Assembly: GCA_963555985.3 (NCBI GenBank)
Contig: OY820591.1
Location: 672,001 to 736,000 of the forward strand
Direction of reading: 5' to 3'
DNA length: 64,000 nucleotides
Origin: Dehalococcoidia bacterium
GTDB taxonomy: Bacteria > Chloroflexota > Dehalococcoidia > Bin125
Positions 3,547 through 44,970 of this stretch are shown piece after piece. The notes under the pieces were generated by a model that worked only from the letters and a program-made list of their open reading frames with translations, was not told the origin of the DNA and did no database searches. A program made the translations under genes and the position numbers. Position 1 is the first letter of the stretch, and each line of letters starts with the position of its first letter.

Positions 3547-5100
3547 TCAGATGCATGTCGGCCAACTGGCCAACTCCTTCGTTTCACCTCGTCTGGGAGG
3601 CGTCACCGGGAACCGCTGCACCGCCTCCAGCAACCAACTGCGCGTATCCGCCGGATCAATGATCTCATCCAGATTCATGATGCCGGCGGCGCCCCATGGC
3701 TCATGGCCCAAAGTCCATTCAGCGATCAGGCGCTGACGTTCGGCGTCGGGGTCGGCAGCGTTGGCAATGTCTCGCGCGTGCACGACGTTGACGCCGACGC
3801 CTGGGTCCATGAACGAGATCTCCGCCCCCGGCCAGGCGGTGACCAGGGAGTTATCCATGCTGTTGCCCGAGAGCGAGAAGTAGGCCAGCCCGAATGCTTT
3901 GCGCAGCACGACGGTCATGCGCGGGACGGTCATCAGCGCAAGCGCCTCCATGAACATGATCGCTTTATGCAGCAGCCGCGCATGTTCGGGCTGAGAGCCG
4001 ACGATGAAGCCGGGCACGTCCTGCAACCAGATCGTGGGGATGTTGAAGGCCTCGCACATGCAGACGAACTGCGTGCCCTTGTCGCAGGTGTTGGGGTCGA
4101 GCGCGCCGGCGTTGAACATCGGATTGCTGGCGAGAATGCCGACCGTCTGTCCGCCGATCCGCGCAAGCGCCGTGATCAAACTGCGACCGAAACGCGGCTT
4201 GAGTTCAAGCATCTCTCCGTCATCGACCAGCCGCGTGATCACGCGGTGCATGTCGTAGGCGCGCTGACGGCGAGTGGGTACGAGGTTGGCAATGGCCGGA
4301 TCGTGCTCGGCGTAGTCGTAGCCCGCGCGGATTGGAGGCGTTTCCCAACAGTTGGAGGGCATGTAGGAGAGGAACGACTTGATCTGCTCGATCGCTTCGT
4401 CTTCCGTGTCCGCCGATACGTCGATCTGGCCCGTGAGGTCCAGATGGATGTCGACGCCGCCGAGCTCCTGCAATGTGATCAGCTCGCCGGTGGCGATCTC
4501 GATCACACGCGGCGAAGAGACGTTGAGCGCCGAGCCTCGTACCTGGACGGTGAAGTCGGAATAGGCGCTGTGGAAGCTGGAACCGCCAAAGGACTCGCCC
4601 ACGATGGCGGTGGCCATCGGAATCCGCCGCCGCCGCCGGGCGGACTCGATGCCCGGCGGGATCTTGCTGAAACCTTCAGAGCCAAGAGCGTCGGGCAAGC
4701 GCGCGCCGCCGGTCTCGCCGAAGTAGACGTACGGCACGCCCTGCTTGAGCGCCTGCTCGTAGATCCGCTTCATCCGCTTGCCGCCCACGACCGAGGAGGA
4801 GCCATGCAGCACGGTCACGTCGTCGCCGCAGCCGGTGGCGGGCCGGCCGTCGATTTTGCCCCAACCGCCAATCTTGCCGTCGCCGGGCGTACGGTCGCGG
4901 ACATCGGGGACCTCGGAGAAGGCAAAGGTGCCGATCTCGCGGAAGCTGCCGGGGTCGAAGAGCTTGTCAAGCCGCTCGCGGATCGTCATCCGCCCCTTCG
5001 CGTGCTGGCGAGCGATCCGCTCGGGCGAACCCATCTCGGAGACGATCTTCTGCCGCCGCATGAGGAGGTCTTCACGGATCGCTTGGGGTGACAGTGGCAT
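3547..5100 (-). CDS. Acyl-CoA carboxylase carboxyltransferase (beta) subunit
   Basis: RQHAKGRMTIRERL, D.TVLHGS, ETGGARL, LQDVPGF, LRKAFG, DEIIDPADTR. Confidence 0.9.
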   Translation of the reverse strand: MPLSPQAIREDLLMRRQKIVSEMGSPERIARQHAKGRMTIRERLDKLFDPGSFREIGTFAFSEVPDVRDRTPGDGKIGGWGKIDGRPATGCGDDVTVLHGSSSVVGGKRMKRIYEQALKQGVPYVYFGETGGARLPDALGSEGFSKIPPGIESARRRRRIPMATAIVGESFGGSSFHSAYSDFTVQVRGSALNVSSPRVIEIATGELITLQELGGVDIHLDLTGQIDVSADTEDEAIEQIKSFLSYMPSNCWETPPIRAGYDYAEHDPAIANLVPTRRQRAYDMHRVITRLVDDGEMLELKPRFGRSLITALARIGGQTVGILASNPMFNAGALDPNTCDKGTQFVCMCEAFNIPTIWLQDVPGFIVGSQPEHARLLHKAIMFMEALALMTVPRMTVVLRKAFGLAYFSLSGNSMDNSLVTAWPGAEISFMDPGVGVNVVHARDIANAADPDAERQRLIAEWTLGHEPWGAAGIMNLDEIIDPADTRSWLLEAVQRFPVTPPRRGETKELASWPTCI

Positions 5101-5360
5101 CGAACGCTCCCTCTTGCAGATTGCAGGCCGAGTCTAGGGGCGGCTTTACCGCTTGGGACAGCGAGCAGCGATGGCCTGTTGGCGTGGGTTGGGCGAGCGC
5201 TGTTCGGGGGAGAGATTGTTCGGCGTGCGATGGGTGGATAGCGGAAATTTTTTCGGGCGAGTCTGGTGGAGGAAACCCAGTGTTTTACGGGAGATCGTGT
5301 GATCTGGGTGGTAGGCGGTGGTTAGTCCTGGAAAGCCTGGGTGTTTCGATTCCGATCGAA

Positions 5361-5408
5361 TTTGTTTCATTTTGTTTCATTTTGTTTCGCCTTGTTTCGC
5401 TTTGTTCG
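5361..5408. repeat. 10-bp tandem repeat (TTTGTTTCRY) x~5
   Basis: TTTGTTTCAT TTTGTTTCAT TTTGTTTCGC CTTGTTTCGC TTTGTTCG read directly. Confidence 0.9.
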
Positions 5409-5833: not shown

Positions 5834-5935
5834 TGGGGTAGTTCCTTTCCGTTGGAACTGGCGTTTGGCGTAGATGGCCGATTATATATGGATGGATGTT
5901 CGGGTAGGTAATTTTGGTGTGTGTTGTGGTTGGCA

Positions 5936-6145
5936 GAGGGTTGGGTGCTGGTCACGGCGAGATACCCGCGACGGGGCGCGGGTATGACGGAACTTGTTTG
6001 GGGCGGGTATGCCAGGGAGAGGCGGACCCCCCTCTCTGTCGCTGCGCGACATCTCCCCCCGCAGTGCGGGGGGAGAGAGGATCGGGACTTCTGCAAACGT
6101 CTCCCTGCGCGGGAATGACGGATATGGGGATTTTGCACAGGTCTT
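5936..6145. repeat. Cluster of palindromic repeats and MITE right ends
   Basis: GAGATACCCGCG-N4-GGCGCGGGTATGACGG (5959-5990); double hairpin CCCCCTCT..CTCCCCCC..GGGGGGAGA (6027-6078); TIR-like ends at 6089-6103 and 6131-6145. Confidence 0.8.
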
Positions 6146-41375: not shown

Positions 41376-41403
41376 CGCACGTTTTTCGTTCAAGACACGG
41401 TTG

Positions 41404-42333
41404 ATGATGTTCACACGAGCCAATCTGGCAGCGTTTGCTGCGCTCGGCGCGGGTTCTGCGCTCTATGCGTGGTGGGAGTCGACTGCGGTCGAGATCACAC
41501 GTCGGCCGCTTTACGTGCCCGACTTGCCGCCCGGCCTGGACGGACTGCGGGTGCTGCACATCAGCGACACGCATTTCCCGGAATCGGCGGACTCCGTGGG
41601 GCGGTTTCTCGAATTGATCTGGCCGCTCGAATACGACCTGATCGTGTGCACCGGCGACTATGTGGAAACGGCGGCCGGCTGGAACGCTGCGGGGGACGCG
41701 CTGACGCAGTTACGCGCGCCGTTCGGCGTCTACGCGAGCTTGGGGGCGCACGACTATTGCGCTCCAGTGCGTACGCTGGGATCGTGGTTGCAGTTCAACT
41801 CCGATCGCTTGCGGCATCGGCGCAGACGCATGGTTAATCCGGCTCCGTTTGTCGAGCGGCTCGAGGCGGCGGGAATCGTCGTGCTGCGCAATGAGTGGAG
41901 ATCAGCCGAGATCGGCGGAGAGCTCGTTCGGATCGCCGGAGCGGGAGACGCATCAGTGGGCATGGCGCACTTGGAGCGGGCGCTGCCTCCTGCGGATTTG
42001 ACCCCGGCGTCTTTCCAGATGTTGCTGACCCATAGCCCGGATGCCGTTTTTCGCCTGAGTCCAAGCAGCCGAGAGCCTCGCTTGGTGTTCTGCGGACACA
42101 CGCACGGGGGCCAGATTCGCGTGCCTGGATGGGGCGCGCCCGTCCGTCACTCCAATCTGGTCACGAGAGAGCGGGCGGCGGGTGTGTTTCACCCGTACGG
42201 GCCTGAAGGGCCGCAAGTGATTGTCAGCCGCGGCTTCGGTACGGCGTTCGTGCCTTTTCGATTTGCTTGCCGGCCGGAACTTGGCCTGTACGAATTGCGC
42301 CGCGCGGAGTCTGCCGGACACGCGGGTTTGTAA
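41404..42333 (+). CDS. Calcineurin-like metallophosphoesterase (YkuE-like)
   Basis: HISDTH, TGDY, LGAHD, LLTHSPD, GHTHGGQI, VSRGFG, RPE. Confidence 0.88.
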   Translation: MMFTRANLAAFAALGAGSALYAWWESTAVEITRRPLYVPDLPPGLDGLRVLHISDTHFPESADSVGRFLELIWPLEYDLIVCTGDYVETAAGWNAAGDALTQLRAPFGVYASLGAHDYCAPVRTLGSWLQFNSDRLRHRRRRMVNPAPFVERLEAAGIVVLRNEWRSAEIGGELVRIAGAGDASVGMAHLERALPPADLTPASFQMLLTHSPDAVFRLSPSSREPRLVFCGHTHGGQIRVPGWGAPVRHSNLVTRERAAGVFHPYGPEGPQVIVSRGFGTAFVPFRFACRPELGLYELRRAESAGHAGL

Positions 42334-42383
42334 CCGATCGGCAACGAAAGTCGGCGATTTTTCCTGCTAGACTCGGGATGCAC

Positions 42384-42553
42384 GCAGCCGAACTTAGCGC
42401 TGACTCGAGTGAGAACGACAGTTGGCGCCGAGGCGGGGAACCCACCATACGAGGGGTGAAGCGGGCGGACGAGCGAGCCGTCACGGCTTGATCGCACGCC
42501 GGCCGATGACCTGAACATCGAACCCGACAGCTGACCCCGCAGGCATGTTCAGG
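42384..42553 (+). ncRNA. c-di-AMP riboswitch (ydaO/yuaA class)
   Basis: GCCGAA..stem..GCGGGGAACC, GGGGTGAA, CGAACCCGACAGCTGACCCCGCAGGC; GCGGGG/CCCCGC and CCTGAACAT/ATGTTCAGG pairings; sits in the 5' leader of the next gene. Confidence 0.85.
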
Positions 42554-42672
42554 GCGGACGCAGGACCAACGCGGGCGTGATCGAGCCTGGCTCGCCACGA
42601 TCGCCCTTCCTCCGCCGAGCGGCCGCGGGCTGCGCAGACAGCCGCCAATTCTCGCCTGAGGAGGAGTGATCG

Positions 42673-44097
42673 ATGACCACAGAAACCTATAACCCCGCTG
42701 CACTCGGAGCCGACGACTTCGCCTCGGAGCACTACCAGGCGATCAATCTGCACAATTTCGAGAAGCTCCCGCAGATCCAGGAGCTGCCGGACGAGATCAT
42801 TCACGACATTCATGTCGTGGGCCGGGTGCTCCCGTTCAAGTCAAATCGTTACGTCGTTGACCACCTGATCGACTGGGATGATCCGCTCAACGACGGCATG
42901 TTCAAGCTGACCTTCCCGCAGCGCGACATGCTCTCGCCGACGCACTTCAGCACGATGTCGGCGGCGATTGACAGCGGCAAGAACGCGCGCGAGCTGAAGG
43001 TCGTCGCGGATGAGATGCGGATGACGCTGAACCCGCATCCCGCTGGCCAGATGGAGCACAACATGCCCCAGCTGGACGGGATGCCGCTGGAAGGGATGCA
43101 GCACAAGTACCGCGAGACGGTGCTGTTCTTCCCGTCGCAGGGGCAGACCTGTCACGCCTACTGCACCTTCTGCTTCCGCTGGCCGCAGTTCGTGGGGCTG
43201 GAGGGCAAGAAGTTCGCAATGCGCGAGGGTGAGCGACTGCGCGGCTACCTGGCCCAGCATCACGAGGTTTCCGACGTGCTCTTCACCGGCGGAGACCCGC
43301 TGATCATGAAGACGAAGACGCTCCGCGACTACATCGAGCCTCTGACCAAGCCCGACGCGGGTCACAACCTGCGTACGGTGCGGATCGGCTCGAAGGCGAT
43401 CGCCTACTGGCCGCACCGCTTCGTCTACGACGACGACGCTGAGGACTTGCTCAACCTGTTCCGCGAAGTGACCGGCGCGGGAATGCAGCTCGCGCTGATG
43501 GCGCACTTCAACCATCCCGCAGAGCTGCGGACTTCCGTTGCACTGGAGGCGGTCCGCCGGATTCGTGAGACTGGCGCGCAGATCCGCACGCAGACGCCGC
43601 TGCTGAAGCACATCAATGCCGACTCCCAGCTGTTGGCCGACATGTGGGCCGAGCAGACTCAGGCCGGCTGCGTGCCGTACTACCTGTTCGTCGCGCGCGA
43701 CACCGGCGCGAAGCGCTACTTCGAGCTTCCGCTGGTCGATTGCCAGGAGATCTTCCGCGGCGCCTACCAGCGCGTATCCGGCGTAGCCAGGACAGTGCGT
43801 GGCCCGTCCATGTCTGCCGGTCCCGGCAAAGTCCAGATTCTCGGTGTCTCCGAGCATCGCGGCGAGAAACTCATTATCCTTCGCTTCCTCCAGGGCCGCG
43901 ACCCGGATTGGGTCGGCAAGCCGTTCTTCGCCAAGTACAGCGACACGGCAAGCTGGCTCGACGAGCTTGAGCCGGCCGAGGGCGACGAGTTCTTCTTCGA
44001 GGAACGCCTGCGCGAGCTGCTGGCGGAAGAGGGTTCGCCCTGGGCTCGCCCTGAAATCGCGATCCAGCTCCTCGATACAGCCGCCGCGGGCGGATAG
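42673..44097 (+). CDS. KamA-family radical SAM/PLP 2,3-aminomutase
   Basis: HKYRETVL, CHAYCTFCFR (CxxxCxxC), DVLFTGGDPL, AHFNHP.EL, PYYLF, GPGKV (PLP Lys). Confidence 0.88.
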   Translation: MTTETYNPAALGADDFASEHYQAINLHNFEKLPQIQELPDEIIHDIHVVGRVLPFKSNRYVVDHLIDWDDPLNDGMFKLTFPQRDMLSPTHFSTMSAAIDSGKNARELKVVADEMRMTLNPHPAGQMEHNMPQLDGMPLEGMQHKYRETVLFFPSQGQTCHAYCTFCFRWPQFVGLEGKKFAMREGERLRGYLAQHHEVSDVLFTGGDPLIMKTKTLRDYIEPLTKPDAGHNLRTVRIGSKAIAYWPHRFVYDDDAEDLLNLFREVTGAGMQLALMAHFNHPAELRTSVALEAVRRIRETGAQIRTQTPLLKHINADSQLLADMWAEQTQAGCVPYYLFVARDTGAKRYFELPLVDCQEIFRGAYQRVSGVARTVRGPSMSAGPGKVQILGVSEHRGEKLIILRFLQGRDPDWVGKPFFAKYSDTASWLDELEPAEGDEFFFEERLRELLAEEGSPWARPEIAIQLLDTAAAGG

Positions 44098-44107
44098 ACG
44101 GTTCGGC

Positions 44108-44539
44108 GTGACTGGCGCCGCTGCGGAGGTTGTCGATCCGGTCGTGCGACCGGGCACGCCTGCGTTTCGTTGCCTGGCGGACGAGTGCGGCGCGATGTGC
44201 TGTCGCAACCCGTACCGTGTGGACTTGGGAGAGGACGAGGTCGCTCGCCTGGCTCGTGAGGTCGACGTGTCGACCGTGCTAGACGAGCGAGCGTCGATGG
44301 TTCTGATGCGCCAGGTCGGCGACGCGTGCGTGCTGCTGACTGAGGATCGGCGCTGCGCGGGCTACGCTGTGCGGCCGAACGGCTGCCGTGATTACCCATT
44401 CCGCGTCGTCAGCGAACCGGGCGGAGATCCGACGCTCGTGCGCGATCTCGCCTGTCCCGGATTCGTTGGGCCGCCTCTGAGCGAGTCTGAGTACGAAGAA
44501 CTGCTCCGGCTGCTGCTGCCGATGTCAAAGCAGCCCTGA
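44108..44539 (+). CDS. YkgJ-family cysteine-cluster (Fe-S/Zn) protein
   Basis: FRC...CG.MCC, C.LL....C.GY..RP.GCRDYPF. Confidence 0.78.
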   Translation: MTGAAAEVVDPVVRPGTPAFRCLADECGAMCCRNPYRVDLGEDEVARLAREVDVSTVLDERASMVLMRQVGDACVLLTEDRRCAGYAVRPNGCRDYPFRVVSEPGGDPTLVRDLACPGFVGPPLSESEYEELLRLLLPMSKQP

Positions 44540-44875
44540 GACCTTCTCGACGAATCGACTGACGGCAACGAGAGCCCGCCTGACATTCTCAGGGCTATCC
44601 CAATTCTCGTAGAAATTGACATGAAGCTGGTTCGCCACCTGGAACAACAGATAGATATCGTCGTCGTCCGCCTCAGTCGATAGCCGGTCAACGGCTCGGT
44701 AGAGCGCTGCATGGTCACGGTGAGGCAAACCCCGCTGTTCCGCAGCGGCTTTGACGATCTGCGCGGCGGCGCTCCAACCCTTCTCCGAAGCCTGGCGCAC
44801 GTCGTCAGCGGCGAGTTCCGCCTCGGCTTGCGCCAACAGCGTCATGCTGGCTTCGTGATATGCCCGTGTCGTCAT
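44525..44875 (-). CDS. PaREP1-family (HEPN-like) protein
   Basis: QASEKGW.AAAQ.VKA, H..L, LHVNFYE. Confidence 0.78.
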
Positions 44876-44970
44876 GCGGCCTCGCCTTCCGTCGGTACAG
44901 CCTAGCCGCCTGTCGGCGTTCGTCGATGTCTCCGTATACTCGACCTGCACAGGAAGAGTGGAGGCGTCTG

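Follow-up and report, generated by a model that had tools for sequence, protein, structure and literature searches.

A c-di-AMP-class riboswitch precedes a KamA-like aminomutase of an uncharacterised clade in a Dehalococcoidia genome: a candidate route to beta-glutamate

The locus described here lies in a 64,000-nt stretch of a Dehalococcoidia bacterium (phylum Chloroflexota; assembly GCA_963555985.3, contig OY820591.1, positions 672,001 to 736,000 of the forward strand), hereafter the window, whose own coordinates are used throughout. On the plus strand, a cyclic di-AMP (c-di-AMP; ydaO-yuaA) riboswitch aptamer (42385..42553) is followed by a leader with expression platform (42554..42672, defined from predicted folds and a terminator scan), by the gene of a KamA-like radical S-adenosylmethionine (radical-SAM), pyridoxal 5'-phosphate (PLP) aminomutase of 474 aa (42673..44097), and by the gene of a YkgJ-type CxxCxxCC protein of 143 aa with a GTG start (44108..44539; PF03692, 34.4 bits against a threshold of 23). 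The initial annotation, made from the letters alone, had placed an aptamer directly ahead of a radical-SAM gene and a YkgJ protein, and both open reading frames (ORFs) were confirmed. The YkgJ-like ORF begins 10 nt past the aminomutase stop codon, and the two genes are probably co-transcribed.

The aptamer was delineated using the Rfam match, leader alignments, a consensus fold and pseudoknot covariation. The Rfam ydaO-yuaA model (RF00379) matched positions 42416-42561 (+) with 41.0 bits (E 4.1e-06), above its gathering score of 38, and a scan of the whole genome returned the same match in the window. Twelve model positions, those of the P2 hairpin, are deleted in the Rfam alignment, which begins too late; once the element was re-aligned with orthologous leaders, its 5' end was placed at ~42385, in agreement with the start of 42384 proposed by the initial annotation, which had called the aptamer well formed. 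The core motifs GCCGAA (invariant, 42387-42392), GGGGUGAA and CGAACCCGNCAGCUNACCCCGCAGGC are all present, as expected of the conserved core. All helices lie on the plus strand: P1 pairs GCC (42387-89) with GGC (42542-44), P3 pairs GCGGGG (42433-38) with CCCCGC (42535-40), and an extended P2 hairpin, CUU.GCGCUGACU...AGUUGGCGC.GAG (42393-42432), was drawn from the leader alignment and was recovered in the minimum-free-energy fold as well. A pseudoknot of 8 bp joins CCUGAACA (42510-42517), in the loop of the last hairpin, to the 3' tail, UGUUCAGG (42546-42553). RNAalifold, applied to 7 Chloroflexota riboswitches, recovered the family helices with compensatory changes in 12 of 30 pairs. None of 14 non-cognate tails paired with the window pseudoknot loop as well as the cognate tail did, and among 15 riboswitches the pseudoknot is retained through at least 6 different helix sequences, those of the relatives including CCCGAG/CUUGGG, CCCUGU/ACAGGG, CCGAC/GUCGG, UCUCCU/AGGAGA, UCUCCGA/UCGGAGG and CUCUCUCG/CGAGGGAG. 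A profile searched with nhmmer, of which the window sequence was itself a part, scored 76.9 bits over 42386-42545. The window RNA is a genuine member of the known c-di-AMP riboswitch class, with ligand binding predicted, and a look-up of a DAC cyclase, suggested by the initial annotation, found one DAC-domain gene in the same genome (114.5 bits). That the match is a chance or decayed one with no regulatory role is hardly conceivable: its score is only 3 bits over the cut-off and the closest orthologs are without the element, but the low score is accounted for by the unusually long P2, the core motifs and pseudoknot are intact, and orthologous positions reach 96.8 bits.

A c-di-AMP riboswitch on a KamA-like gene, as the initial annotation had read this locus, recurs among relatives. 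RF00379 was found on the same strand and just 5' of the ortholog in 13 of 22 other Chloroflexota loci (48.9-96.8 bits), namely in 5 of 11 loci of a first batch (L007, L009, L010, L011 and L013; 48.9-84.4 bits) and in 8 of 11 of a second (L018, L020, L021, L024, L026, L027, L050 and L068; 68.8-96.8 bits). Among the nine Chloroflexota loci without it, L014 has almost no upstream sequence. The nhmmer riboswitch profile, built from 7 of these same sequences, was combined with a core-motif pattern and run over 83 loci and the window, and the element was found 5' of the gene only in the window and those 13 loci. In 11 loci from outside Chloroflexota, an Rfam scan gave no match to any family.

Further c-di-AMP riboswitches were encountered in the course of these scans. 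A second one in the window's own genome (G000:C1:2213426-2213583 (-), also L001 1501-1658 (-); 88.9 bits) has no evident gene behind it: ~220 nt follow, next a CCCCGGGG...CCCCGGGG hairpin with a T-run, and after it an enoyl-CoA hydratase gene in convergent orientation. This riboswitch may be an orphan, or it may serve a small ORF or small RNA; a 430-aa ORF behind it was considered as the target and set aside, having no Pfam match and looking spurious. Two of the relatives' loci carry a second riboswitch on the opposite strand (L018 5217-5349 (-), 56.9 bits; L050 4465-4599 (-), 60.9 bits), preceding a divergent gene for a HemL-like class III aminotransferase (L018 3874-5166 (-); L050 3126-4403 (-)) that scores 330-350 bits on NF000818, below the cut-off of 398. 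These back-to-back riboswitch genes may form a two-gene c-di-AMP regulon for beta-amino-acid metabolism.

The sole PDB sequence match of the window aminomutase was the lysine 2,3-aminomutase 2A5H (HMMER, E 1.5e-17). An AlphaFold2 model made with 35 relatives (predicted local distance difference test, pLDDT, 86.5; predicted template-modelling score, pTM, 0.86) was compared with known structures using Foldseek, and 2A5H was again on top (E 1.1e-16, TM 0.56-0.65), with the next entry at 4.4e-05; the Clostridium KamA that the initial annotation had named for comparison is thus the best match in both sequence and fold. The cluster motif C160-x3-C164-x2-C167, Arg169 (two residues past the third Cys) and Lys386 (aligned with the PLP lysine of KamA, Lys337) are invariant in 35/35 aligned clade members, and Arg169 stands at what we take to be the position of the KamA Arg that binds the substrate carboxylate. 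The CxxxCxxC motif, the PLP Lys and the KamA-like fold place the protein in the KamA family. No cysteine is present in its C-terminal 90 residues.

Both acidic residues that bind lysine in KamA are replaced. In the HMMER alignment with 2A5H, PYYIYQCD of KamA falls on PYYLFVAR of the window protein, so that Asp293 corresponds to Arg342, and VVDAPGGGGK falls on GPSMSAGPGK, so that Asp330 corresponds to Ser379. Arg342 was found in 35/35 aligned clade members and Ser379 in 34/35, the remaining one having Cys. Three canonical Chloroflexota KamAs have PYY[IL]YQCD and V[VI]DAPGGGGK, with Asp at both sites, and a profile-profile comparison of the clade with these three (probability 99.7, E 5.1e-27) again put Arg342 on the Asp. 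The registers that the initial annotation had drawn by eye (YYLFVAR and SMSAGPGK, Asp to Arg and Asp to Ser) were therefore reproduced at both sites by HMMER and, for Arg342, by the profile-profile alignment. The predicted distal pocket of the enzyme is one with Arg342 and Ser379 instead of the two lysine-binding Asp residues.

The protein scored far below the cut-offs of the NCBIfam models of this family: 115.1 bits for TIGR00238 (KamA family; cut-off 199.2), 102.6 for AblA-like-2 (396), 94.7 for EpmB (TIGR03821; 369.3), 90.8 for arginine 2,3-aminomutase (600) and 85.8 for AblA/KamA (TIGR03820; 525.4), whose two Asp residues it also lacks. Two canonical Chloroflexota KamAs were run as controls and passed both TIGR03820 (612 and 739 bits) and TIGR00238 (378 and 327 bits). 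An ordinary lysine 2,3-aminomutase (KamA, AblA or EpmB) making beta-lysine might be expected from public records, which call relatives 'lysine 2,3-aminomutase', and from the structural match to KamA. It is nonetheless extremely improbable, given that both lysine-binding Asp residues are replaced, that the protein falls well short of the AblA and EpmB cut-offs, the first of which true KamAs of the same phylum pass, and that no ablB or epmA gene is nearby. The initial annotation had reported no ablB acetyltransferase, epmA/efp or lysine-fermentation neighbours, and a Pfam scan that covered the large ORFs of the window from 31 to 57 kb likewise found no acetyltransferase, EpmA, EF-P or lysine-fermentation gene. 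Its placement of the enzyme in an uncharacterised KamA clade was borne out by six NCBIfam cut-offs, the sixth being given below, which the window protein does not reach while canonical KamAs of the same phylum pass. By these comparisons the enzyme belongs to a distinct, uncharacterised and widespread KamA clade, and this clade is the real point of interest.

Relatives are numerous. A word-indexed search returned at least 8000 matches to the window aminomutase, an exhaustive search of 50%-identity representatives returned 3495 proteins at E<=0.001, of which 295 reached E<=1e-30, and in a species-level genome collection 574/582 candidate stretches encoded a relative. ESM Atlas matches fell in generic 'KamA family' clusters only. 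Members of the clade are 54-60% identical to the window protein, and their genomes carry the labels Bacteroidota, Ignavibacteria, Balneolales, Beta- and Gammaproteobacteria, Phycisphaerales, Thermoplasmata and Nitrosopumilales. The residue equivalent to Asp293 was compared in 22 more distant relatives: it is Arg in 10 (those with at least 37% identity and three others, two of these longer than 500 aa) and Q, S, F, A, G, E or D in the other 12; because it varies in this way, the position behaves like a specificity determinant. Within the window's class the aminomutase gene is patchy (23/201 genomes, including the window's own), within its own family it was found in 9/9 genomes, and in its own genome it is the sole KamA-family gene. 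Sponge, coral-reef and marine metagenome runs were among the small-share holders, and their labels were not counted as habitat evidence. Fused or extended KamA-family proteins were observed in both groups: in some Dehalococcoidia, canonical KamA cores carry ~300 extra C-terminal residues (L087, L088 and L089; ORFs of 741-753 aa), and relatives of the new clade have N-terminal extensions of 100-450 aa, the extended forms listed being P0126 (882 aa) and P0219 (608 aa).

Between the aptamer and the aminomutase start, the Shine-Dalgarno sequence GAGGAGGAG (42658-42666, +) was predicted to pair with CCCUUCCUCC (42604-42612) in a long hairpin, and the terminator scan found no intrinsic terminator in the leader (42554-42672). 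The energy of the Shine-Dalgarno hairpin was not better than that of shuffled sequences (z +0.61), which weakens a simple switching model. A model in which the pseudoknot tail simply competes with the anti-Shine-Dalgarno strand is not supported, as pairing of the Shine-Dalgarno sequence at equilibrium was unchanged with the tail free or locked. In six riboswitch-bearing relatives (L018, L021, L024, L026, L027 and L050), a strong GC hairpin and U-rich stretch directly follow the aptamer and look like a terminator. In published c-di-AMP riboswitches, binding of the ligand leads to termination, at least as described in the sections of PMC9337991 drawn on here, and by analogy with the riboswitch family the window copy would also act in the OFF direction. 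Upstream, a terminator-like hairpin with a T-run (42338..42364, +), which ends the preceding metallophosphoesterase gene, suggests that the riboswitch begins a new transcription unit; it was called by a consensus scan only and is weak (1 site found, 1.6 expected from shuffles).

Contigs from two metatranscriptome libraries of one study align to the leader (42399-42644 and 42453-42647) and to pieces of the ORF within 42709-44091. They are ~83-95% alike to the window and therefore come from relatives, and one begins a few bases from the predicted 5' end of the aptamer. As contigs of RNA libraries are not proof, they are a weak hint of transcription.

A link to a particular product was sought in the archaeal members of the clade. 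In 5/5 Nitrosopumilales genomes the best KamA-family match belongs to this clade (121-139 bits), and none of the five has a match over the TIGR00238 cut-off; four further matches reached 18-69 bits, the strongest being a second, partial copy of the same gene. The ortholog was present in 146/201 sampled Nitrosopumilales-family genomes (three with a match are flagged unpublished). To our knowledge, a KamA-family glutamate 2,3-aminomutase is the only known route to beta-glutamate. In the sections of the reports drawn on here, beta-glutamic acid is the most abundant identified metabolite of Nitrosopumilus maritimus SCM1, at 730 mM (PMC8269262), and a 2024 paper states that an alternative osmolyte route is yet to be identified in ammonia-oxidising archaea (PMC11428151). 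The literature searched contained no gene assignment for beta-glutamate or an aminomutase in Nitrosopumilus, Thaumarchaeota or Nitrososphaeria. For the synthesis of beta-glutamate by marine ammonia oxidisers, and by many bacteria, this clade is the best candidate at hand.

Neighbourhoods of orthologs elsewhere are mostly unconserved, with three exceptions, an MscS-family channel gene, a class I/II aminotransferase gene and a Na+/H+ exchanger-like gene. At 7/8 Nitrosopumilales loci (L028, L044, L046, L059, L061, L064 and L076), an MscS-family gene (~577 aa) lies upstream of the ortholog, divergently adjacent at 161-225 nt; at the eighth, L019, an MscS gene (4535-5377) lies 0.9 kb downstream. 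This assignment was checked with Pfam (PF00924 and PF21082) on the representative L044 only. A similar MscS arrangement is presumably found at the ectoine cluster of N. maritimus. In 5 loci the Na+/H+ exchanger-like gene is no more than 3.6 kb from the ortholog; this one was checked with Pfam on L069 only.

The reading that we put forward, with a probability of about one half, is that of a glutamate 2,3-aminomutase which supplies beta-glutamate as an osmolyte under repression by c-di-AMP, the substrate, the osmolyte role, the OFF logic and the coupling of the aptamer to the Shine-Dalgarno hairpin being the parts that we infer. The locus would be a unit of two genes led by a c-di-AMP riboswitch, and the first gene would encode a radical-SAM, PLP-dependent amino-acid 2,3-aminomutase that converts L-glutamate into beta-glutamate, an anionic compatible solute that acts as counter-ion for K+. 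At high c-di-AMP, with turgor and K+ sufficient, the aptamer would be bound and the pseudoknot tail locked, turning expression off; at low c-di-AMP, under hyperosmotic or K+-limited conditions, the gene would be expressed. Directly supported are the aptamer and its conservation ahead of orthologs, the fold together with the cofactor residues, the Asp replacements, the separateness of the clade and the osmoregulatory neighbours elsewhere. The initial annotation had suggested a c-di-AMP-controlled beta-amino-acid osmolyte pathway; every part of this that sequence could probe held, and the MscS neighbours and Nitrosopumilales best matches add new support. We would extend the reading, at somewhat short of even odds, to the clade as a whole, which would then supply the beta-glutamate synthase still missing from marine ammonia-oxidising archaea and serve many bacteria too. 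It would be a third lineage of radical-SAM glutamate 2,3-aminomutase, specialised independently, with an Arg/Ser pocket and without Zn-site cysteines, that works in aerobes and in Chloroflexota is wired by a c-di-AMP riboswitch to K+/turgor homeostasis.

Several observations weigh against this reading. On the regulatory side, the three closest fetched orthologs (L004-L006; 86-88% identity, tblastn) have no riboswitch: each has a 145-nt spacer only (5856-6000), with the same metallophosphoesterase gene upstream and a YkgJ-like gene downstream, and a permissive Rfam scan of the L004 leader gave no match even at E<=5. The riboswitch was therefore recently lost or gained. Apparent conservation of the leader around L004-type loci is largely the end of the upstream coding gene. 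In the window leader, thermodynamic folding predicted the Shine-Dalgarno sequence to be paired in both mimicked states, with the pseudoknot tail locked or free. On the side of the osmolyte, the clade was also found in Paludibacter, Alistipes, Parabacteroides, Chitinophaga and Ignavibacterium-labelled genomes, which are not obviously saline, and the link to N. maritimus runs through orthologs from related genomes, strain SCM1 not having been singled out. As to the substrate, the lowest of all NCBIfam scores was that on glutamate 2,3-aminomutase itself (TIGR04368, 78.3 bits against a cut-off of 650), a model with no member over its cut-off in 301 Chloroflexota genomes (one flagged unpublished) or in 14 control genomes, M. 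jannaschii among them. The Arg/Ser pair differs from the Lys/Asn reported for Clostridium glutamate 2,3-aminomutase, and the predicted pocket Arg would be compatible with any substrate whose distal group is anionic or polar. A class I/II aminotransferase gene (~432 aa, aspartate-aminotransferase-like, below all equivalog cut-offs) lies directly downstream on the same strand in 9 loci (L017, L022, L025, L042, L045, L049, L052, L063 and L067; Ignavibacteria, Phaeodactylibacter and one unclassified bacterium), and within 5 kb in 13 loci; in 2 Dehalococcoidia loci the HemL-like aminotransferase with its own c-di-AMP riboswitch is divergent to the ortholog. These adjacent aminotransferases could point to a longer pathway or a different substrate.

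The same riboswitch and enzyme class could accordingly act on another substrate, for instance glutamine (to beta-glutamine), 2-aminoadipate or an intermediate made by the aminotransferase, with a product for osmoadaptation or cell-envelope chemistry. The adjacent aminotransferases, the poor TIGR04368 score and the variation of the Asp293-equivalent in 12/22 distant relatives, which indicates that the superclade diversified in specificity, are all in its favour. We consider it rather unlikely, as Arg342 is invariant in 35/35 members and favours an anionic distal group, and as beta-glutamate is the beta-amino acid reported to be very high where this clade provides the best KamA-family match; aspartate can be set aside on chemical reasoning, since a 2,3-shift would regenerate aspartate.

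The surroundings of the unit in the window bear on a catabolic or secondary role. Upstream of it lies the metallophosphoesterase gene (41401-42333) and, further upstream, genes of a thiamine pyrophosphate (TPP) enzyme and an aldo/keto reductase; downstream, a convergent PaREP1-family ORF is followed by genes for methylmalonyl-CoA mutase, family III CoA-transferase, thiolase and enoyl-CoA hydratase (all from Pfam scans of the large ORFs). Given these acyl-CoA genes, and the precedent of IdnL4 of incednine biosynthesis, a radical-SAM enzyme proposed, in the part of PMC11284099 drawn on here, to make beta-glutamate for a polyketide starter unit, the aminomutase might be a catabolic enzyme, like that of Clostridium, or one of secondary metabolism, with no osmolyte involved. 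This is very unlikely: the acyl-CoA genes are not conserved beside orthologs beyond the closest relatives and are separated from the unit by the opposite-strand PaREP1-family ORF, no decarboxylase, polyketide synthase (PKS) or non-ribosomal peptide synthetase (NRPS) gene is adjacent, and the combination of c-di-AMP control with MscS and Na+/H+ exchanger genes nearby suggests a role in osmotic homeostasis. Of 81 loci, only 5, those of the window and L004-L007, have a YkgJ-like gene 3' of the aminomutase; it is a lineage-specific addition and not a general partner of the aminomutase. The PaREP1/PaREP8 ORF itself (44525-44950 (-); PF05942, 70.5 bits) overlaps the last 15 nt of the YkgJ-like gene, and belongs to a family that Pfam describes as archaeal, which is unusual for a Chloroflexota genome.

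What the beta-glutamate reading offers is one testable candidate gene, common to Chloroflexota, Bacteroidota, Proteobacteria and marine ammonia-oxidising archaea, with the Chloroflexota riboswitch as an independent, regulatory clue linking this gene with the homeostasis of K+ and osmotic balance. If the reading is true, an anionic, non-metabolised counter-ion would be made when K+ is taken up, and a natural KamA variant from aerobes would provide a new way of binding an acidic substrate.

Compared with C. subterminale KamA (2A5H) and AblA (TIGR03820), the window enzyme has the fold, the CxxxCxxC motif, the Arg two past the third Cys and the PLP Lys in common, but its identity to KamA is 22%, Asp293 and Asp330 are replaced by Arg and Ser, and its N-terminal domain, though conserved among clade members, differs from that of KamA. 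KamA carries a Zn site in the C-terminal domain, and the cysteines of that domain are absent from the window enzyme. Glutamate 2,3-aminomutases are KamA-family enzymes that, like the window protein, have a basic and a small polar residue at the sites of the two Asp, and beta-glutamate, the product proposed here, is an osmolyte. The Clostridium (C. difficile type) enzyme studied by Ruzicka and Frey in 2007 reportedly has Lys/Asn at the two Asp sites, from which the window protein differs by its Arg/Ser and by its TIGR04368 score (78.3 vs 650). The methanogen enzyme of Tunckanat et al. (2022) is said to have an N-terminal extension of ~160 aa; the 474-aa window protein is without one. On the regulatory side the nearest known system is Dehalobacter ablA, a gene of the osmolyte beta-lysine, which, in the sections of White et al. 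(2022; PMC9337991) drawn on here, has a tandem Na+/c-di-AMP riboswitch whose c-di-AMP aptamer triggers termination, so that an osmotic-stress gene is off when c-di-AMP is present; Na+ riboswitches on eam are also noted there. Unlike that tandem arrangement, the window riboswitch is single and has an unusually long P2, its leader has a Shine-Dalgarno-containing hairpin and no terminator, and the enzyme it precedes is not AblA. Shared by the two systems, as far as those sections describe ablA, are the aptamer family, its position in the 5' leader of an osmoprotection-linked KamA-family gene and, by analogy, the expected logic by which bound ligand would turn the gene off. A c-di-AMP riboswitch on a KamA-family osmolyte gene is in this respect an already published theme, and through the ablA precedent the regulatory logic proposed for the window is directly precedented (PMC9337991).

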